Source: a virus (lineage: Duplodnaviria > Heunggongvirae > Uroviricota > Caudoviricetes). Taken from it: 21,218 bases of DNA. The number at the start of each line of letters is the position of its first letter. Position 1 is the first letter of the stretch. Location: positions 1 through 21,218 of IMG/VR virus record IMGVR_UViG_2547132270_000005. One strand, given 5' to 3'. The notes under the pieces were generated by a model. It was not told the origin of the DNA. It made no database searches and saw only the letters and a list, made by a program, of their open reading frames with translations. The translations under genes were made by a program, and so were the position numbers. This document shows positions 1 to 9,094 of the stretch, piece after piece.

Positions 1-40
1 CAAGCTGATGATGCGGGTTCGATTCCCGCTACCCGCTCCA
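1..40 (+). tRNA. tRNA-Gly (UCC-type, glyT-like), 3' portion only; the 5' part lies outside the window
   Basis: Bases 1-40 read CAAGCTGATGATGCGGGTTCGATTCCCGCTACCCGCTCCA: a T-arm (GGTTCGATTCC), a 3' acceptor strand and terminal CCA. From memory this is near-identical to the 3' half of E. coli glyT (one acceptor-stem difference). The anticodon itself is outside the window. Confidence 0.7.
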
Positions 41-403
41 GCATTTGAAACAAGCCTTATTGTATTGCGGCACTGGCGTATTTTTTATTACGTGGGAGCA
101 GGTTGTTTTGAAAAAGCATTCTGTTCTCTGGCTATGATTTGAGGCCGGGTGTAGCCTCAGTGCTGATTTTTTTACGGTAGCAGAATGGTGCATTATCGAT
201 GGAGATTTTGTATTTCCTGGCAGGGTCGGTGATGCATCATTCTGGTGTTGTAAATCGCACCATAGAGGCGCTCCTCAGTGCGAGGGTGGTTTAAAGAGTC
301 GGTTTAGCGGGAAACCACAGTATCCATACAGCACGGAATACTTCGGGAGGCACCCGACGCCTCGGTTTAATAACAATTAAAAAATTCATCCCTTGCATTG
401 ACC

Positions 404-430
404 AACCGCCATATCTGGCGGTTTTTTTTA
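404..430 (+). terminator. Rho-independent terminator-like hairpin (CCGCCA-tatc-TGGCGG) followed by a T8 run
   Basis: Seen directly: 6-bp GC-rich stem at 406-411/416-421, then TTTTTTTT at 422-429. Oriented for + strand transcription; the opposite strand lacks a downstream U-tract. Confidence 0.5.
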
Positions 431-806
431 TTCCTTTCTCAGGACAAAAAAAGACACGAGCATCCAGGAATACTCGTGGGACAACGTCCTTTAGATAGCA
501 ATTTGCGAGAGGGTGAAAAAATGGCGCGGCTGTCGGATTAAAGCCGCGGGACAAAGTCCATGAAGAATAATAAGTATCAGCCTCCTACAGGAGACGAGTT
601 GATATTACTAAGCTTTAAAAATGGTTTAAATCCTCAGATTAACCTTAATTTCAGGTAAGTCTTATTTCATTTCTTCGCGCCACGCCCGGCGCACATCAAA
701 AACCACAGAGCCTTTCAGGGGTGAGCTTACGGGATGGTCAGTGTGACTTTCTCTGTGGGCTGGTCACCCCCGGGCGGAGGCTCACCCACTAAAAGGAAAA
801 GTCACG

Positions 807-1232
807 ATGTTTGGTATTTTCAAAAAGAAAACCCGCAAGGCCATTACCGAAGTGAAGAAGATGGAGAACCGCGATGCGGTGGAGGCGACCGTCTGGGGTG
901 CGTATTCCATCGCATACGCTGACGACACCTGTGACGCGAAAGAAATCGCAGTACTGGAGAAAACCATTGCAGCACTTCCTGCCTTTGCGCCGTTCTCCGG
1001 CGAGATTGCACAAATGAGTGCAAATATCCGCGCCCGTTATGAAGCGTCGCCGCGCTCTGCCAATGCTGAAGCCCTTCGTCAGCTGGCTGATGTTGCCGGT
1101 ACTGATGATGCAGTTAATGTACTGTGCCTGTGTCTGGATATCGCTGACCAGGATGGCATTGGTCCGGATGAAGAAGCACAGCTTAAGAAAATTGCTCAGG
1201 CGCTTCAGCTACCGCTGGAGCAGTACCTGTGA
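807..1232 (+). CDS. TerB-like (tellurite-resistance TerB / DjlA N-terminal fold) small protein, 141 aa
   Basis: ORF with RBS AAGGAAAAG 6-8 nt upstream of the ATG. The C-terminal segment LDIADQDGIGPDEEAQLKKIAQALQLPLEQY and the upstream helix pattern resemble the TerB acidic ADG/DEE signature. Family assignment is by eye only. Confidence 0.6.
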   Translation: MFGIFKKKTRKAITEVKKMENRDAVEATVWGAYSIAYADDTCDAKEIAVLEKTIAALPAFAPFSGEIAQMSANIRARYEASPRSANAEALRQLADVAGTDDAVNVLCLCLDIADQDGIGPDEEAQLKKIAQALQLPLEQYL

Positions 1233-1381
1233 AAAGTGCGCGCCTTGTACTGGCTGCCATCCTGCTGTTTCTGGTAGTGGCGGTGGATTTCACCGGACGG
1301 CTGATGTCGGTGCTGGCAGATGGTGTGCTGGTGGCGATGGCGCTGGTCGTGCTCCGGCCTTTACTGCGCAAATCTGAATAA
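1229..1381 (+). CDS. Small hydrophobic membrane peptide, 50 aa (MKSARLVLAAILLFLVVAVDFTGRLMSVLADGVLVAMALVVLRPLLRKSE)
   Basis: GTG start overlaps the TerB-like stop (GTGA). It is below the ORF track length cutoff. Two hydrophobic stretches, and a strong terminator follows. No RBS is visible other than coupling. Confidence 0.4.
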   Translation: MKSARLVLAAILLFLVVAVDFTGRLMSVLADGVLVAMALVVLRPLLRKSE

Positions 1382-1432: not shown

Positions 1433-1456
1433 CGGGCCGCTGGTGGCCCTTTTTTA
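1433..1456 (+). terminator. Rho-independent terminator (GGGCC-gctggt-GGCCC plus TTTTTT)
   Basis: Seen directly; a second hairpin (AAAGGCA...TGCCTTT, 1391-1413) with a T-run lies just upstream. It separates the TerB-like cassette from the lysis genes. Confidence 0.65.
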
Positions 1457-1474
1457 TTTACAGGAGAAAAAAGT

Positions 1475-1867
1475 ATGTCTGAACCCTTATCCGGTTCCGG
1501 TACGGCTGCGGCGCTCGGCGGGGCGACGGTGTACGGGCTGTTTACCGGAACGGATTTCGGGATTGTGTTTGGTGCGTTCGCCGGGGCGTTGTTTGTGGCA
1601 ACGATGCCGCAGCAGCTTTCAGCCTGGCGTGTGGCGGCGCATTTTCTGGTGTCGTTCATTGTTGGCGTGCTGGGAGCGCGTGTGCTGTCAGCCTGGATAG
1701 CGGCAAAAACAGGTTATGACGGTACATCGGCAGATGCGCTGTGCGCGGTGCTTGTCGCGGTAGTGTCGGTAAAGATTCTGTCGTTCATCCACCAGCAGGA
1801 TATCGCATCACTGGTGTCCGGTCTGTTCTCCCGCCTGCGGGGCGGAGGAGGTGGCAATGTTAAGTAA
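1475..1867 (+). CDS. Putative holin-like membrane protein (130 aa, multiple predicted transmembrane segments)
   Basis: Strong RBS (AGGAG) before the ATG at 1475. Gly/Ala-rich hydrophobic segments; sits immediately upstream of the endolysin gene. Holin call is by position and hydrophobicity, not motif. Confidence 0.55.
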   Translation: MSEPLSGSGTAAALGGATVYGLFTGTDFGIVFGAFAGALFVATMPQQLSAWRVAAHFLVSFIVGVLGARVLSAWIAAKTGYDGTSADALCAVLVAVVSVKILSFIHQQDIASLVSGLFSRLRGGGGGNVK

Positions 1868-2135
1868 CCTTCCCGACTTGCTGAATGTGGCGTTATGCAC
1901 GGTTATTGTGCTGACGCTCTTTTTTTATCGTCGCCGTGATTCCAGACATAAACCGCTGATGTCATGGCTGGCCTGGCTGCTGATGCTGCTTTATGCCTTT
2001 GCACCACTCAGCTATCTGTGCGGTCGCCCGTTAGCGGCGAACTGGCTGGCGGTGGGGCTTAATCTGCTGTTCTGCGTGTTGGTGATTCGCGCACGTGGGA
2101 ACGTTTCAAAAATCTTTGTATTACGAAGGCGCTGA
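1857..2135 (+). CDS. Second lysis-cassette membrane protein (about 92 aa; holin or antiholin-like)
   Basis: RBS GGAGGAGG precedes the ATG at 1857 (track ORF begins at 1851). Three hydrophobic stretches. The stop lies 2 nt before the endolysin start. Confidence 0.5.
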   Translation: MLSNLPDLLNVALCTVIVLTLFFYRRRDSRHKPLMSWLAWLLMLLYAFAPLSYLCGRPLAANWLAVGLNLLFCVLVIRARGNVSKIFVLRRR

Positions 2136-2136
2136 T

Positions 2137-2682
2137 ATGAAGTCGAAAGATGAAATTTTTGACGAAGTTCTGGGAAAAGAGGGCGGTTACGTCAATCACC
2201 CGGATGATAAAGGCGGACCGACAAAATGGGGTATTACGGAAAAAGTCGCCCGCGCTCACGGATATCAGGGCGATATGCGTGACCTGACACGCGAACAGGC
2301 GCTGGAAATCCTTGAGGCGGATTACTGGTTCGGACCACGCTTTGATCAGGTGGCCGCATTATCCTCTGATATTGCTGCAGAGTTGTGTGATACCGGTGTG
2401 AATATGGGGCCGTCCGTAGCATCGAAAATGCTCCAACGCTGGCTGAACGTTTTCAACCTGCAAGGCAAATTGTTCCCGGATATGGACGCAGACGGGCGTA
2501 TCGGCCCCCGCACGATTAATGCACTACGGACTTATCTGCAAAAACGCGGCAAAGACGGCGAACTGGTGATGCTGAAGGCGCTGAATTGCACGCAGGGCGA
2601 CCGCTATCTGGAGCTGGCAGAAAAACGCGAGGCCAACGAGTCGTTTGTCTACGGCTGGATGAAAGAGCGCGTAGCAGTTTAA
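2137..2682 (+). CDS. Endolysin, glycoside hydrolase family 108-like N-terminal domain with a C-terminal peptidoglycan-binding domain
   Basis: N-terminus DEIFDEVLGKEGGYVNHPDDKGGPTKWGIT matches the conserved GH108 N-terminal pattern (EGG...P.D.GG.T..GIT). The C-terminal region resembles a PG-binding domain. Start chosen at ATG 2137 (RBS GAAGG); the track ORF opens at 2095. Confidence 0.8.
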   Translation: MKSKDEIFDEVLGKEGGYVNHPDDKGGPTKWGITEKVARAHGYQGDMRDLTREQALEILEADYWFGPRFDQVAALSSDIAAELCDTGVNMGPSVASKMLQRWLNVFNLQGKLFPDMDADGRIGPRTINALRTYLQKRGKDGELVMLKALNCTQGDRYLELAEKREANESFVYGWMKERVAV

Positions 2683-3325: not shown

Positions 3326-4114
3326 ATGAGCGAGAAATTGAAGATCGTCTATCGCCCTTTACAAGAACTGTCTCCGTATGCACACAACGCCAGAACACAC
3401 AGCCCTGAGCAGGTGGCACAACTGGTAGAAAGCATTAAGCAATTCGGCTGGACTAATCCGGTGCTGATTGATGAAAAGGGCGAAATTATTGCGGGTCACG
3501 GTCGCGTTATGGCGGCTGAAGTGCTCAAAATGGATTCCATTCCGGTCATCGTTCTGTCTGGTCTGACGGATGATCAGAAAAAGGCGTACCGCCTGGCAGA
3601 TAATCGCCTGCCGATGAATGCTGGCTGGGATGAAGAGCTGTTACGGATGGAGCTGTCGGACCTAATCAATGCTGATTTTGATGTCTCCCTGACAGGCTTC
3701 AGCCCGACAGAAATTGATGAACTGTTGACGGATGTTTTGCCCGGTACAGGAAATGAGGAGGAGCCGTATACGACGAAAATTGATACGCCTGTTTATGAGC
3801 CGTCGGGCGGTAAACCGGATATCAGTGAACTGTACGACGATACGAAAACTCAGAAGTTGATCAGCCGGATACGTTCGGCGTCCCTTGATCCTGATATTGA
3901 GAAATTCCTCCTGTGTGCGGCAGAACGTCACACGGTGTTTAATTTCAGCAGAATTGCGGACTATTACGCTCACGCCCCTGCTGAAATTCAGTGCCTTTTC
4001 GAGGAGTCGGCGCTGGTGATCATTGATTATCAGCAGGCTATTGAAAATGGATTTGTCCGGATGACGCAGCGCATGGTGGAGATCATGCATGGCGGGGAGG
4101 AGGAATATGCGTGA
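3326..4114 (+). CDS. ParB-like (ParB/Srx fold) nuclease-domain protein, 262 aa
   Basis: The N-terminal roughly 100 aa (YRPLQELSPYAHNARTHSPEQVAQLVESIKQFGWTNPVLIDEKGEIIAGHGRVMAA...) fits the ParB N-terminal domain pattern, including the GxGR-type motif. The C-terminal half is unassigned. Confidence 0.7.
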   Translation: MSEKLKIVYRPLQELSPYAHNARTHSPEQVAQLVESIKQFGWTNPVLIDEKGEIIAGHGRVMAAEVLKMDSIPVIVLSGLTDDQKKAYRLADNRLPMNAGWDEELLRMELSDLINADFDVSLTGFSPTEIDELLTDVLPGTGNEEEPYTTKIDTPVYEPSGGKPDISELYDDTKTQKLISRIRSASLDPDIEKFLLCAAERHTVFNFSRIADYYAHAPAEIQCLFEESALVIIDYQQAIENGFVRMTQRMVEIMHGGEEEYA

Positions 4115-5039
4115 TGATTTTTGCGCCTTTATTCTGACTCACGGGCGACCGGACAAAGTTCTGACTTACCGGACGTTGCGTCGTGCTGGCTATACCGGGA
4201 AAATTTTTATCGTTGTTGATGATGAAGATAAGACACGGCATCAGTACATGGCTGAATTTGGTGAACAGGTGCTGGTGTTTTCCAAAGCCGATATCGCCAG
4301 TCGTTTTGACGAAGCCGATAATTTCGGTGACCGGCGCTCAATTTTTTACGCCCGTAATGCCTGTTTCGACCTGGCAAAACTGGTCGGGTGTAAATACTTC
4401 ATTCAGCTCGATGATGATTATCACGAGTTCCAGTTTCGGGTGGATCGCAACTATGACCAGGCCTATTTTCCGATAAGGAAACTGGATGCGATCCTTTCTG
4501 AAATGCTGGCGTATTACGAATCAATACCCGCGCTTTCCATCGCTATGTCGCAGGGCGGGGATTTTCTTGGTGACAATGGCGGCCATGCTTCGTGGGTGAA
4601 ACGCAAGGCAATGAACAGCTTTATCTGTTCGGTTGATCGACCGTTCTCATTCATGGGGCGCATTAACGAGGATGTGAATACGTACACGAATCTCGGTCGC
4701 CGTGGTGAATTGTTTATGACGATCGGTGCTGTCCAGTTAGGGCAGAAACAGACGCAGAAAAACAGCGGCGGAATGACCGAGCTGTATCTGGATTCCGGAA
4801 CCTATGTTAAAAGTTTTTACTCCGTCATGCATGCGCCGTCGTGCGTAAAAATCTCACTGATGGGCGCCAGCCATAAACGCATTCACCATCAGGTCACCTG
4901 GAACAACGCTGCAGTAAAAATCCTTCACGAAAAATACAGGAAGAAGACACCCTGCATATCAATGGGGGTGACAAATGATTCCGTATTCGAAAGTCGAGTC
5001 TCTGGCAGCGTGCCGGATGACTGCACAACAAATCGCTGA
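4107..5039 (+). CDS. Hypothetical enzyme, possibly glycosyltransferase-A-like (acidic motifs IFIVVDDED and IQLDDDYHEF)
   Basis: RBS GGAGGAGG before the ATG at 4107 (track ORF opens at 4089); the ParB-like stop falls inside its first codons. Motif spacing resembles the GT-A/GT2 DxD arrangement. No PP-loop or methyltransferase motifs were seen. Function is inference only. Confidence 0.55.
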   Translation: MRDDFCAFILTHGRPDKVLTYRTLRRAGYTGKIFIVVDDEDKTRHQYMAEFGEQVLVFSKADIASRFDEADNFGDRRSIFYARNACFDLAKLVGCKYFIQLDDDYHEFQFRVDRNYDQAYFPIRKLDAILSEMLAYYESIPALSIAMSQGGDFLGDNGGHASWVKRKAMNSFICSVDRPFSFMGRINEDVNTYTNLGRRGELFMTIGAVQLGQKQTQKNSGGMTELYLDSGTYVKSFYSVMHAPSCVKISLMGASHKRIHHQVTWNNAAVKILHEKYRKKTPCISMGVTNDSVFESRVSGSVPDDCTTNR

Positions 5040-5229: not shown

Positions 5230-6321
5230 ATGAGCAGACCGGACTGGGGGGCGTTGCAGCAGGAGTATATTGCTGAATACACCCGCTCCGGTATATCTCC
5301 GGTGGCATGGTGTGAAGCAAGGGGACTGAATTACGCAACAGCCCGTCGTTACATCAAAAAACCTCCGAAAAATGCGCAGACAGAAGTGCGCAAAACTGCG
5401 CAAAAAAGTGCGCAGAAAAAATCTGCGCAGACTGCGCAAAAGCGGAACGAAAAATCTCAGAAAAAAAAGCCAGTATCCGATGCGTGCCTGAATGAGGTCG
5501 ACGCGGAGGAATTTTCGTTCTGTCCCGATGAATTCGGCATTTCTGACCAGCAGGCAAAATTCGCCATGCTGGTTGCGCAGGGTAAAAACCTCATCGAGGC
5601 ATACTGCCTAGCGGGTTACGAGGGAACGGGAAACGTAGCAAGTGCCGCAGCCTCACGTCTGTTAAGAAATGTTAAGGTTTATCGGGCTATCTCATGGTTC
5701 CGCAATCAGTACCAGAAACGCTATACCGCAGACCTGGATTTACTGGTGAGCCAGTTGATGGCTATTGTCCAGGCCGACCCCAATCAGTTGGCACAATTTC
5801 GCCGTGTTAACTGCCGTTATTGCTGGGGCGAGAATCACCTCTACCAGTGGCGTGACATTGCAGAATTCGATAAGGCAGCGGCACAGGCCTCCAGAGATGG
5901 CAAACCCGAACCGGAATATGGTGGCCTCGGCTTTGTTGATAACGCCATACCCAATCCGGACTGCCCGAAGTGCTGCGGTGAGGGAACGGGGCAGCTTTAT
6001 ATGGCTGATACCACTCTGCTTGATGGGGATGCTCGGCAATTATATGCAGGGGCAAAGCTCGGAAAATTCGGCGTTGAGATCCTGCTGGAGGATAAGGCTG
6101 CCGCCCGGCGCGAACTTATCAAGCTGATAATGGCGACGAAAGGAAGTTCTGCTGGTGGTGCAACTGACAGTCGCAATGATCTGGAGCTTGAAGGACTGAG
6201 GCTTCGCAATGAAAAGCTGCGCACTGAGATTGAAAACCTCAAAAAAGGCGTGGGTGGTGAGAATAACGAAATAATTATCCACAACTCTCTGCCGATGCCG
6301 GGAGTGGATAATGTCGATTGA
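5230..6321 (+). CDS. Terminase small subunit (N-terminal HTH, central terminase small-subunit-like region, Cys-rich segment)
   Basis: N-terminal HTH (VAWCEARGLNYATARRYI), a central region resembling terminase small subunits (AKFAMLVAQGKNLIEAYCLAGY), and CRYCWGENH...CPKCCGEG suggesting a zinc ribbon. Lies immediately upstream of the large subunit. Confidence 0.75.
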   Translation: MSRPDWGALQQEYIAEYTRSGISPVAWCEARGLNYATARRYIKKPPKNAQTEVRKTAQKSAQKKSAQTAQKRNEKSQKKKPVSDACLNEVDAEEFSFCPDEFGISDQQAKFAMLVAQGKNLIEAYCLAGYEGTGNVASAAASRLLRNVKVYRAISWFRNQYQKRYTADLDLLVSQLMAIVQADPNQLAQFRRVNCRYCWGENHLYQWRDIAEFDKAAAQASRDGKPEPEYGGLGFVDNAIPNPDCPKCCGEGTGQLYMADTTLLDGDARQLYAGAKLGKFGVEILLEDKAAARRELIKLIMATKGSSAGGATDSRNDLELEGLRLRNEKLRTEIENLKKGVGGENNEIIIHNSLPMPGVDNVD

Positions 6322-7639
6322 AATCTACCTCCCAAAACCTCATGAGGGGCAAATAGCTGCATGGACGGCGGCAATAGAGGAACGCTTCCACGCGGTATGC
6401 TGTGGTCGTCGCTGGGGTAAAACGGTGATGCTGGTGAACATCGCTACCAGTTTCGCGACGCGGAAATTTGCCGTTCCTACCACCGGGCAGCTTATCGCGG
6501 GTAGGGTGGGGATTTTTACCGCACAATACCGCCAGTACCAGGAAATCTGGGATGAAATTAGCGCCGTTCTGCAACCGCTGATCCTCAGTCAGTCAAAAAA
6601 TGAAAAGCGCATCATTCTCCGTAATGGGGGGCGCATCGACTTTTGGGTAACGGACAACAACAAACTGGCCGGGCGTGGGCGTAAATATCACGCTGTGCTG
6701 ATTGATGAGGCAGCATTCACTAAATCGCCGGAAATGCTCGAGGAAATCTGGCCCCGAGCGATACGCCCGACGCTTGTCGATTACCGCGGCTGTGCGTGGG
6801 TATTTTCCACACCAAACGGTATCGACGAGAGCAATTTTTTCTACGCGATATGCCACGATGAATCCCTGGGATTTGTCATGCACCATGCGCCAACTTCATC
6901 GAATCCGTATATTCCGAAAGAAGAACTGGAGGAAACGGAGAAGAAATCCGATCCGCGTGTCTGGCAGCAGGAATATCTTGCCGAGTTCGTGGACTGGTCC
7001 AAAGATGCGTTACTCGATGTCGATAAGCTGCTGGTGGACGGTCAGCCGATTGAGATGCCGCCGCACTGCGACATGATTTTCGCAGTGATGGATACGGCGC
7101 TGAAAGGCGGGACCGAAAATGATGGTACTGGCGTGGTGTATTTCGCTTATGAGTCAACGTATTCGGACGAGCCAAAACTGACGATTATTGACTGGGATGT
7201 GACGCAAATTAAAGCGTCATTGCTTCCTGAATATATCCCCGGCGTTTATGACAACCTCGAGCGCCTCGCGAAATTATGCCGTCCGCGTCTGGGCAGCCAG
7301 GGAATTTTTATGGAAGACGCCGCGATGGGGGCAATTCTCAACCAGAAGGCGGAAACCGAAGGCTGGGATATGACGCCGATTAAATCGGCACTAACCAGCA
7401 AGGGCAAAGACGAACGGGCGGTGATAGCATCCAGCTACCACTATCAGGGGATGTGCAAAATCGTCCGGGAGGCTTACGACAAGACCGTTTCATTCAAACG
7501 CACCACCGCAAACCACCTCATAAAACAAATCGCCGGGTTCCACCTGGCAGACAAAGACGCGCATAAACGTGCTGATGACCTTTTCGATTGTTATACCTAT
7601 GGATTGATCATCGCGCACGGTAATTACGCGGCGTTGTAA
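6311..7639 (+). CDS. Terminase large subunit (ATPase plus nuclease)
   Basis: Walker A-like CCGRRWGKT near the N-terminus, Walker B-like VLIDEAAF, and a C-terminal acidic nuclease-like region (AVMDTALKGG...DGTGVVYFAY). Start overlaps the small subunit stop. Confidence 0.85.
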   Translation: MSIEIYLPKPHEGQIAAWTAAIEERFHAVCCGRRWGKTVMLVNIATSFATRKFAVPTTGQLIAGRVGIFTAQYRQYQEIWDEISAVLQPLILSQSKNEKRIILRNGGRIDFWVTDNNKLAGRGRKYHAVLIDEAAFTKSPEMLEEIWPRAIRPTLVDYRGCAWVFSTPNGIDESNFFYAICHDESLGFVMHHAPTSSNPYIPKEELEETEKKSDPRVWQQEYLAEFVDWSKDALLDVDKLLVDGQPIEMPPHCDMIFAVMDTALKGGTENDGTGVVYFAYESTYSDEPKLTIIDWDVTQIKASLLPEYIPGVYDNLERLAKLCRPRLGSQGIFMEDAAMGAILNQKAETEGWDMTPIKSALTSKGKDERAVIASSYHYQGMCKIVREAYDKTVSFKRTTANHLIKQIAGFHLADKDAHKRADDLFDCYTYGLIIAHGNYAAL

Positions 7640-7657: not shown

Positions 7658-9094
7658 ATGGCAGAGATCGAGATTACTGGCGGCCTCGGTTCAGCACTGA
7701 TGCATATTCTTGAGGCTGAAGAAATTCAGCCGGGAACCGACATTGGCTATGAATTGTGTAAGCAGCTGTGGCAATTCCATCCTCTGGGCGGAAAACTTGT
7801 CGAAAAACCCATACTGATGGCGATGTGTAAGCCGCGCCAGTATAACGTGGAAACCGACCCTGACGAACGGGTTGTGCGGCGTTTCCAGGAGGTGTGGGAG
7901 CGCATGAAGGTGAACGAGAAGATTAAAAATCTGTTTTTTCTCTCTCGTTGCTACGGTGCTGCAGCGATCGGCGTGGGCACCGACAGTGTTTCATGTCGTG
8001 AGCCGCTTCCGACATTCGGGCTGACAGAAGAGGATGTGTATATCAACGCGTGGGATCCGTTGAACGCTTCCGGTTCGATGGTGACTGACCAGAACCCAAA
8101 CAGTCCGTTTTTCCAGGAAGCCAATAAAAAGCTAAAGATTGGCGGAAAAGACTGGCATCCGTCACGCACGTTGAAAATTTTCAACGGCACACCGATTTAT
8201 CTGGAGTTTCAGAGTTCATCGTTCGGATTCACCGGGCGAAGCGTGTTTCAGCGAGTTCTTTATTCCCTGAAATCCTATATCAACACGATGGAGGCGAATG
8301 ATCTCGTCAGTCAGAAAGCGGGCGTACTGGTAGCTAAAGTTGTGCAGAACGGTTCGAAACTTGACGGGATCATGGCTGCCGCCACGGGACGAAAAAGGGA
8401 AAATGTCAAAGAGGCAAAAAATAAAGGTGTGCTTAGTATCGGGAAGGATGAGGACGTTACCTCGCTGAATTTACAAAACATCGATGGCGCGCTAAATGCC
8501 GCCCGCGACAACATTATTTCCGATATTGCATCAGGTAGCGATGTTCCCGCGATTCTCATCAAGGAGGAGGCTTTCTCGAATGGTTTCGGTGAAGGAACTG
8601 AGGATTCGAAAGCTATCAGCCAGTATATCGATGGTGTACGCCAGCAGATTGAACCTGTGATGGATTATTTCGAACGCCTGGTGCAGTACATCGCCTGGAA
8701 CGAGGAATTTTATCAGTCGCTGAAAAATGATTACCCGGACATCATAACCGACGACTATAAAACCACGTTTTACCAGTGGCGACGTGAATTTACCGCGACG
8801 TGGCAGGAGCTGGTTGAGGAGTCGCCGGACAAACGCCGGGAAAGCGACAGTAAAGTGATTCAACAGGCGATAGCACTTTTCTCTGCCGTGTCGCCACAGG
8901 TTGATCCTGAAAACCGCGCTGCCGTCACTGAATGGCTGGCAAGTCTTGTTAATGCCACGCAAACCTATGGCGAAGCTCCACTCATCATTGATGTGGACGC
9001 GCTGGCGAATTATGAACCACCGAAGCAGGAGACGCCTGATGGCAATTTCCAGCCGGGCGGTGAGGAAGAAGAAACGGATCAGGACGCTGTATGA
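7658..9094 (+). CDS. Portal protein (putative)
   Basis: About 479 aa, directly downstream of the terminase large subunit, acidic C-terminus. Called from position and size; no motif-level confirmation. Confidence 0.65.
   Translation: MAEIEITGGLGSALMHILEAEEIQPGTDIGYELCKQLWQFHPLGGKLVEKPILMAMCKPRQYNVETDPDERVVRRFQEVWERMKVNEKIKNLFFLSRCYGAAAIGVGTDSVSCREPLPTFGLTEEDVYINAWDPLNASGSMVTDQNPNSPFFQEANKKLKIGGKDWHPSRTLKIFNGTPIYLEFQSSSFGFTGRSVFQRVLYSLKSYINTMEANDLVSQKAGVLVAKVVQNGSKLDGIMAAATGRKRENVKEAKNKGVLSIGKDEDVTSLNLQNIDGALNAARDNIISDIASGSDVPAILIKEEAFSNGFGEGTEDSKAISQYIDGVRQQIEPVMDYFERLVQYIAWNEEFYQSLKNDYPDIITDDYKTTFYQWRREFTATWQELVEESPDKRRESDSKVIQQAIALFSAVSPQVDPENRAAVTEWLASLVNATQTYGEAPLIIDVDALANYEPPKQETPDGNFQPGGEEEETDQDAV

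Follow-up and report, generated by a model that had tools for sequence, protein, structure and literature searches.

What is the end of a tRNA gene doing at the first base of a phage sequence? The stretch considered here is IMG/VR record IMGVR_UViG_2547132270_000005, positions 1 to 21,218, which we call the window in its entire length of 21,218 nucleotides (nt). It opens with 40 nt that an earlier note on this DNA had ascribed to a tRNA-Gly, either carried by the phage upstream of its lysis region, as in Stx-type phages, or regenerated at a prophage attachment site. Our analysis points strongly to the first of these two origins. In all probability, window positions 1-40 belong to a tRNA-Gly(UCC) gene of a Rac/lambda-like Escherichia coli prophage, a gene that is complete and looks functional and of which the window shows the 3' part. 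It would be the second gene of a tRNA-Thr(UGU)-tRNA-Gly(UCC) cassette in the slot between the Q antiterminator and the lysis genes, and only the contig boundary cuts it short.

The identity of the fragment could be established base by base. Window 1-40 (CAAGCTGATGATGCGGGTTCGATTCCCGCTACCCGCTCCA) matches positions 36-75 of the glyT gene of E. coli K-12 without a gap and at 39 of 40 bases (BLAST E 8e-13, and a base-by-base comparison), the aligned chromosomal stretch being 909-948 of K-12 sequence L003. The sole mismatch is at window 31, an A where glyT has G, which is gene position 66 and canonical position 67 on the 3' strand of the acceptor stem. Window 1 is the third anticodon base (C36), window 12-28 folds as the T arm GCGGG-TTCGATT-CCCGC, and window 32-36 (CCCGC) pairs with G1-G5, partners on the 5' side that are visible in the homologs only. 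The identity elements of glycyl-tRNA synthetase are U73, G1:C72, C2:G71, G3:C70, C35, and C36, and the window carries the T arm, the 3' acceptor strand, the discriminator U73, and an encoded CCA together with C36, in line with a tRNA-Gly of the glyT type. ARAGORN and Rfam reported no tRNA in the window, because less than half of the gene is present there. The 25-nt tRNA 3' end occurs once in the window, and it was found in none of 100 shuffled sequences even when three mismatches were allowed. The bases that follow window 40 (GCATTTGAAACAAG) contain no tRNA, whereas in K-12 thrT begins 6 nt after glyT and tufB comes next. The earlier note was thus right in three respects, namely that the 40 nt are the 3' portion of a tRNA-Gly, that they differ from glyT at one acceptor-stem position, and that the flank is unrelated to the tufB operon, with thrT not next. 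For the same reasons, we regard it as practically negligible that this is the native chromosomal glyT of that operon. The 39/40 identity speaks for it, but phage late genes follow in place of thrT, and A31 is the majority base among prophage copies, while the G of glyT produces the 97.5% match to window 1-40 that is found in 5,419 of 5,426 complete E. coli genomes.

The truncation of the gene is an assembly boundary, because the window is the entire 21,218-nt draft contig AEJY01000175.1 (assembly GCA_000208505.2), with agreeing gene coordinates. The phage-type tRNA-Gly is the same as chromosomal glyT throughout positions 7-65, and the first base on the 3' side that distinguishes them, window 31, stands at a distance of exactly one 31-mer from the contig start. 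We infer from this that a graph assembler working at k=31 broke the contig at the repeat shared by the tRNA-Gly and glyT. Upstream of window 1, one would expect a tRNA-Thr(UGU), the bases TAT, and then GCGGGTATCG..., the 5' part of the tRNA-Gly. Alternatively, the tRNA-Gly of this genome could be a decayed remnant, truly truncated, dead, and without function, as the contig holds only 40 nt of it and degenerate prophage copies do exist, such as an 80-nt variant whose anticodon arm has an insertion and the lone tRNA-Gly of RM13745 (L137), which has no encoded CCA. We find this very improbable, as the contig start already accounts for the truncation and the 40 nt match the majority intact allele, present in 100 of 126 prophage copies. 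The compensatory U6:A66 pair (in gene numbering) and the conserved promoter and terminator, all discussed below, likewise argue for selection on a working gene.

Homologous prophages, which we found with the window's own sequence as the query, display the locus in full. E. coli A41 (L001) matches window 1-440 at 99.5% and window 1-703 at 95.6%, and it has a complete 75-nt tRNA-Gly(UCC) gene, called tRNA-Gly(tcc) by ARAGORN and scoring 65.6 bits against RF00005 (gathering score 29), with a tRNA-Thr(UGU) of 73.8 bits located 4 nt upstream. In A41 a Q-like DUF1133 protein (phrog_753, 1e-76) directly precedes the pair, and two holins and a GH108 endolysin come after it, the same as in the window. 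Window 1-40 recurs without change at the 3' end of the complete tRNA-Gly(UCC) in A41 and in two further homologs (L002 and L006). JNEC-KY178 is syntenic with 92% of the window in the same order, with its integrase about 17 kb away adjoining yebY, and in VTB97432v the Thr-Gly pair comes after a DNA methylase. The tRNA-Gly is complete in each of the homologous prophages and phage genomes that we examined, and in all of them but RM13745 it is preceded by tRNA-Thr(UGU), with a spacer of 3-4 nt (in nearly all copies 3, TAT), a Q-like antiterminator or DNA methylase upstream, and holin and endolysin genes downstream. The downstream side of the slot is present in the window itself, where lysis genes and terminase all lie on the + strand, and the upstream side is seen in the homologs; with the lysis cassette at window 1475-2682, the tRNA heads the late region of a lambdoid prophage. 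The equivalent slot of the Stx2 phage 933W contains the tRNA genes ileZ-argN-argO. Together with the complete gene and the phage neighbours of the homologs, this bears out the earlier note's suggestion of a phage-carried tRNA upstream of the lysis region. The exception, RM13745, has its prophage at the Rac site beside ttcA, and its slot holds ileZ-like and Arg tRNAs and a lone tRNA-Gly(UCC) (L137 28229-28301), 1.3 kb after the ileZ-like/Arg pair. This lone gene has the host-type C6:G66, no encoded CCA (GCTCAA), and different flanks, and it is a separate acquisition or a decayed copy.

These same homologs bear on the other suggestion of the note, that of a tRNA end restored at an attachment site. 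On this reading, the prophage would have integrated into glyT or another tRNA-Gly gene, and attL or attR would hold these 40 nt as a tRNA 3' end either supplied by the phage or displaced. Many prophages integrate into the 3' ends of tRNA genes and duplicate 20-50 nt, the window shows the 3' part of the tRNA only, and its one base of difference from glyT is of the kind that phage-supplied copies sometimes have. However, none of the homologs has an integrase or a host gene next to the tRNA. The gene is complete in all of them, with phage genes on both sides, and the integrases of the syntenic prophages are about 17 kb away, next to ttcA or yebY rather than to a tRNA-Gly. The truncation that gave the fragment its appearance of an attachment site comes from the assembly, the window being a whole contig. 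The adjoining DNA is the late and lysis region, which lies in the middle of the lambdoid prophage map, with morons and lysis genes following. No second copy of the tRNA end occurs within the 21-kb window, and the far boundary of the prophage lies outside the contig. Moreover, native glyT is present in 5,419 of the 5,426 complete genomes, including A41, which holds it alongside the cassette at a second place in the record. We reject the attachment-site origin, which keeps a very small residual probability because the bases upstream in this particular genome cannot be read.

A phage-carried Thr-Gly cassette of this kind is widely distributed among E. coli prophages. The tRNA end together with at least 80% of the next 400 nt was found in 217 of the 5,426 complete E. 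coli genomes (~4%), and the Thr-Gly junction pattern in more than 120 IMG/VR contigs, a minimum count. Among 185,579 species-representative genomes, the junction occurs only in E. ruysiae and in one contig labelled Corallococcus. This last contig, NZ_RAVW01000911.1 of Corallococcus exercitus (L014), is 423 nt long with a coverage of 0.67 and bears the E. coli prophage junction; it is most likely contamination of that assembly. The pair is annotated in the genome interior in records ON470595, ON470580, ON470583, LN997803, PV340566, JQ347801, and KU052038, and the phages with such an annotation include vB_EcoS-683R6, vB_EcoM-606R7, vB_EcoS-689R5, phi467, PhiR47_1, JLK-2012, and SerU-LTIIb. The feature is therefore an ordinary one: tRNA genes between Q and the lysis genes have long been known in lambdoid and Stx phages, and RefSeq genomes and GenBank phage records already carry annotations of the Thr-Gly pair. 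A literature search for the Thr-Gly cassette or for promoter work on ileZ/argN/argO found nothing directly relevant among the papers searched. As for the window as a whole, the best matches in complete E. coli genomes and phage records are 95-96% identical and mosaic, and the exact 49-mer of window 523-571 was found in one IMG/VR contig (L012) with a different mosaic. A further match is PP818812.1, "Actinobacillus phage vB_Apl-pPE4", at 94.9% to window 661-21218 with 80% of the window covered. Such a match is surprising for a phage of Pasteurellaceae when the same DNA is a common E. coli prophage, and the host assignment of this record may be questionable.

The complete copies also show how the phage gene differs from its chromosomal counterpart. 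In A41, L002, and L006, which were found without any constraint on the tRNA, position 6 is U where glyT has C, and the acceptor pair 6:67 is thus C:G in glyT and U:A in the phage gene, a compensatory double change; overall, the phage tRNA-Gly is identical to glyT at 73 of 75 positions. We also compared 126 prophage copies, most of them from IMG/VR loci whose search pattern prescribed T6 and the Thr-Gly junction and left position 66 free (K-12 glyT itself is the 127th tRNA-Gly(UCC) counted). The A66 of the window is found in 119 of these copies, made up of 100 identical U6:A66 sequences and 19 with one to three other changes. Six copies keep G66, giving a U·G pair, and four of these differ from glyT at position 6 only; the remaining copy is the 80-nt variant mentioned above. 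The anticodon is tcc in all 126. The accompanying tRNA-Thr is exactly thrU in 56 copies, and most of the others deviate in the D loop only. The spacer in CACCA-TAT-GCGGG consists of the first base after thrU and the last two bases before glyT (L001 7959-7968 compared with L003 660-875), and a clean deletion of tyrU and its spacer from thrU-tyrU-glyT yields the exact phage junction. This is suggestive of an origin in which the cassette would have descended from the host thrU-tyrU-glyT cluster through the loss of tyrU.

The Thr slot itself is not uniform across the loci. Seven of them (e.g., L042, L059, L075, and L077) carry a tRNA with the thrU backbone and the anticodon UUU, 2 nt from thrU, and one, SerU-LTIIb (L135 1122-1197), carries a thrU-backbone tRNA with the anticodon UCU, 5 nt from thrU. 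A backbone resembling argN/argO was also seen with UCU, with UUU, or in an aberrant 82-nt form. Judging from these sequences, the UUU and UCU variants look like anticodon switches within phage tRNA cassettes.

The surroundings of the cassette in the homologs suggest that it may be transcribed from a promoter of its own. We collected 62 distinct 140-nt upstream contexts; for 11 of them, another tRNA, part of a longer array, was recognised at the end. A sigma-70-like promoter was found in 45 of the 51 that were left, with TTGnnn (TTGAAA or TTGCGA), an invariant 16-nt spacer, and TAnnnT, the -10-like hexamers being TATTAT, TAATAT, or TATCAT. The upstream contexts are otherwise unrelated, and the promoter region lies outside the window, at 7796-7886 in A41 and at approximately 7800-7886 in L002. 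A conserved GGTTCYRARG follows 7-8 nt after the promoter and 50-69 nt before the tRNA-Thr, and its GGTTCY, where the predicted transcript would begin, is complementary to conserved bases just before the tRNA-Thr, with which it co-varies (GGTTCT...AGAACC in A41, GGTTCC...GGAACC in VTB97432v). This covariation suggests a leader stem in the tRNA precursor. At the other end, a predicted intrinsic terminator at window 404-431 has a stem that is conserved in the homologs, the differences falling in the loop and the closing pair. We considered whether this hairpin might be tR' itself and rejected the idea; A41 has a 933W-like hairpin right after Q, upstream of the tRNA promoter, and the methylase-type contexts put the cassette kilobases away from Q.

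On this basis, transcription of the cassette would start from a sigma-70 promoter of its own, some 65-75 nt upstream of the tRNA-Thr, and during lytic growth Q-modified polymerase would transcribe it as well, with strong read-through after induction. In the lysogen, transcripts from the cassette's own promoter would stop at 404-431, before the moron and lysis genes. Cleavage by RNase P and trimming of 3' ends are standard tRNA biology, and the precursor would presumably be matured in the same way. Between the tRNA-Gly and the terminator lies a non-coding trailer of about 360 nt (window 41-403) that travels with the cassette. Folded as + strand RNA, it has a minimum free energy of -141 kcal/mol (z = -5.25). 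In 20 homologs that are 79-99% identical, 98.2% of its pair cells are standard, compared to 40-53% in slid controls, and there are compensatory double changes in 10 pairs and 37 cells, a number that none of 500 shuffles reached. Many of the exchanges are between G-U and G-C, which fits an RNA of the + strand. The trailer matches no Rfam family; the open reading frame at 291-554 on the - strand that runs over it has no Pfam match, and RefSeq annotates no gene there in A41. The trailer may be a co-transcribed structured RNA or a candidate small RNA.

What the phage might gain from the two tRNAs is suggested by codon usage. The genes glyT and thrU are single-copy in E. coli and encode the only tRNAs reading GGA and ACA, and the benefit would be an extra supply of two single-gene, low-abundance isoacceptors that read GGA/GGG and ACA/ACG. 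We compared 24 genes of the window (6,336 codons) with 42 genes of K-12 (14,790 codons). GGA and GGG together make up 42% of the Gly codons in the window and 20% in K-12 (odds ratio 2.9, p = 4e-19), ACA makes up 17% of the Thr codons compared to 10% (p = 0.004), and ACG 39% compared to 23%. The phage late genes thus use GGA/GGG and ACA/ACG about twice as often as the host genes, and the tape-measure gene alone has 43 GGA/GGG and 14 ACA codons. The same codon argument has been made for the tRNA-Thr(UGU) of phage SfI, whose authors noted that the phage, compared with its host, has an ACA codon bias and proposed supplementation of a rare tRNA (PMC3636060). We believe that codon supply is the likely function of the cassette.

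A different benefit can be imagined, in which the Thr(UGU)-Gly(UCC) pair is kept because immune effectors of the host or of rival prophages inactivate precisely these two tRNAs, whose phage copies would then refill the pool or evade attack. Among the prime targets of the PARIS nuclease AriB is E. coli tRNA-Thr(UGU), which it cleaves, and tRNAs of phage T5 rescue infection (PMC12409363). The toxSAS effector FaRel2 picks tRNA-Gly as well as tRNA-Thr by way of the acceptor stem (PMC11559606), and the sole difference that is fixed between glyT and its phage counterpart is an acceptor-stem base pair. Some cassettes also add a tRNA with the anticodon UUU, which recalls the main PARIS target, tRNA-Lys(UUU) (PMC12409363). 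However, most phage tRNA-Thr genes are identical to thrU, including the anticodon arm where AriB cuts, whereas the protective T5 tRNAs are substituted at the cleavage site. FaRel2 reads base pairs 1, 2, 4, and 5 and not the changed pair 6:67; it does not come from E. coli, and CapRel(SJ46) differs in its specificity. Escape from PARIS or toxSAS effectors was thus considered and drew no support from the sequences, and we judge it unlikely that inactivation of these tRNAs is what maintains the pair. Slightly less probable still is the broader proposal that the cassette and its ~360-nt structured trailer form a module for counter-defence or prophage competition and do not serve codon supply. If that were true, U6:A67 would be an escape mutation, and the thrU-backbone variants with UUU or UCU would be a re-tooling against other effectors.

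The arrangement inferred here for a phage-carried cassette has close parallels in other phages. In 933W (AF125520), the annotated order is Q, pR', qut, two terminators, a putative tRNA promoter pT, ileZ-argN-argO, a terminator, and stx2AB, with pT (-10 TATTAT) just upstream of the tRNAs and the terminator just after argO. Its tRNA genes occupy the same position as the Thr-Gly pair, after Q/pR'/tR' and before the toxin or moron and the lysis genes, and the layout of A41 runs parallel to it, with Q, pR'/tR', a tRNA promoter, the tRNAs, a terminator, morons, and the lysis genes. The tRNAs themselves are different, with Ile (CAU, modified so as to read AUA) and two Arg tRNAs in 933W and Thr(UGU) and Gly(UCC) here. 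Unlike the 933W set, the Thr-Gly genes are nearly identical to those of the host and have a leader of ~55 nt and the ~360-nt structured trailer. The chromosomal thrU-tyrU-glyT-thrT cluster of the tufB operon resembles the cassette in its genes, the phage tRNA-Thr being mostly identical to thrU and the tRNA-Gly matching glyT at the 73 positions noted above. In contrast to that cluster, the cassette is without tyrU, thrT, and tufB, has U:A instead of C:G at pair 6:67, has different flanks, promoter, and terminator, and sits inside a prophage. The lambdoid phages SfI, Sf6, ST64T, and 21 have tRNA-Asn(GUU)/tRNA-Thr(UGU) downstream of Q (PMC3636060) and therefore share a tRNA-Thr(UGU) in this slot, but its partner there is Asn where here it is Gly; this likeness is drawn from their description. 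The PARIS-neutralising tRNAs of phage T5 are likewise phage copies of host tRNAs, tRNA-Thr(UGU) among them (PMC12409363). They are substituted at the nuclease cleavage site, however, and the prophage tRNA-Thr is not, and a protective effect is not implied by its sequence.

Several points weigh against the picture of a working, codon-supplying cassette in this prophage. Because the contig ends at this point, neither the tRNA-Thr nor the 5' half of the tRNA-Gly gene is readable in this genome, and lambdoid phages are mosaic, so the upstream neighbour is one that the relatives make probable. Within the IMG/VR set, T6 and the Thr-Gly junction are true by construction, and the argument for a deletion origin rests on a junction of only 3 nt. 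The putative promoter and terminator are consensus matches backed by conservation only. As to codon supply, AGA/AGG (odds ratio 4.5) and ATA (2.6) are enriched in the window as much or more, with no matching tRNA seen in the closest relatives, and the host codon reference is small, its 42 genes coming from one 50-kb region.

The genes that follow the cassette in the window are those of a lambdoid late region, and their coordinates are collected in the table below together with those of the tRNA fragment, the trailer, and the terminators. The first of them, a moron outside the tRNA cassette, encodes a TerB-like protein, and the gene has ~80% nucleotide identity to tciA of phage P1. In prophages with the window's exact TerB protein, the slot holds either Thr-Gly or an ileZ-like tRNA with tRNA-Arg(UCU). 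As this identical protein follows one cassette type or the other in many prophages, a recombination joint marks the boundary between the modules, at about window 660-700. The two holins match Phage_holin_8 (4e-23) and Phage_holin_3_7 (3e-21) in Pfam, and the RefSeq annotation of the homologs agrees. Just upstream of the terminase, a gene for a ParB-N-domain protein (3326-4114) overlaps the start of one for a TET-associated-type glycosyltransferase (4107-5039; Pfam TAGT, 6e-36; phrog_842 "beta-glucosyl-HMC-alpha-glucosyltransferase", 5e-103), and from these domain matches the two are a possible DNA-modification module.

Table. Coordinates of the tRNA-Gly fragment, its trailer, and neighbouring features in the window.
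Feature	Position	Strand	Basis or remark
Phage-type tRNA-Gly(UCC), 3' 40 nt (gene positions 36-75)	1-40	+	Cut by contig start
Last anticodon base, anticodon stem 3' strand, and variable loop	within 1-40	+	
T arm	12-28	+	
3' acceptor strand	30-36	+	
Discriminator T	37	+	
Encoded CCA	38-40	+	
Trailer, ~360 nt, non-coding, structured	41-403	+	Travels with the tRNA cassette
Predicted intrinsic terminator	404-431	+	8-bp stem AACCGCC...GGCGGTT, then T run; terminator scan
TerB-like "tellurite resistance" moron	807-1232	+	Pfam TerB 1.4e-6; phrog_632 5e-64
DUF3927 small protein	1229-1381	+	Pfam PF13064 2.4e-14
Second terminator-like hairpin	1434-1457	+	Just before holin gene; terminator scan
Holin	1475-1867	+	Lysis cassette (1475-2682)
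Second holin	1857-2135	+	Lysis cassette
GH108 endolysin	2137-2682	+	Lysis cassette; Pfam Glyco_hydro_108 2e-26
Terminase small and large subunits, start of morphogenesis genes	5230-7639	+	Terminase_2 3e-9; Terminase_6N 5e-5; homolog annotation

Phage copies of host tRNA genes are repeats that break short-read assemblies, and when a draft contig shows part of a tRNA at its edge, beside phage genes, this need not mean an attachment site, which is a caution for the reading of similar contigs. As a discovery, a tRNA gene in this slot carries little weight. The observations made alongside it, namely the apparent origin from thrU-tyrU-glyT, the compensatory acceptor pair, the variants that look anticodon-switched, and the structured RNA that may trail the cassette, bear on how temperate phages acquire and remodel the tRNAs of their hosts.

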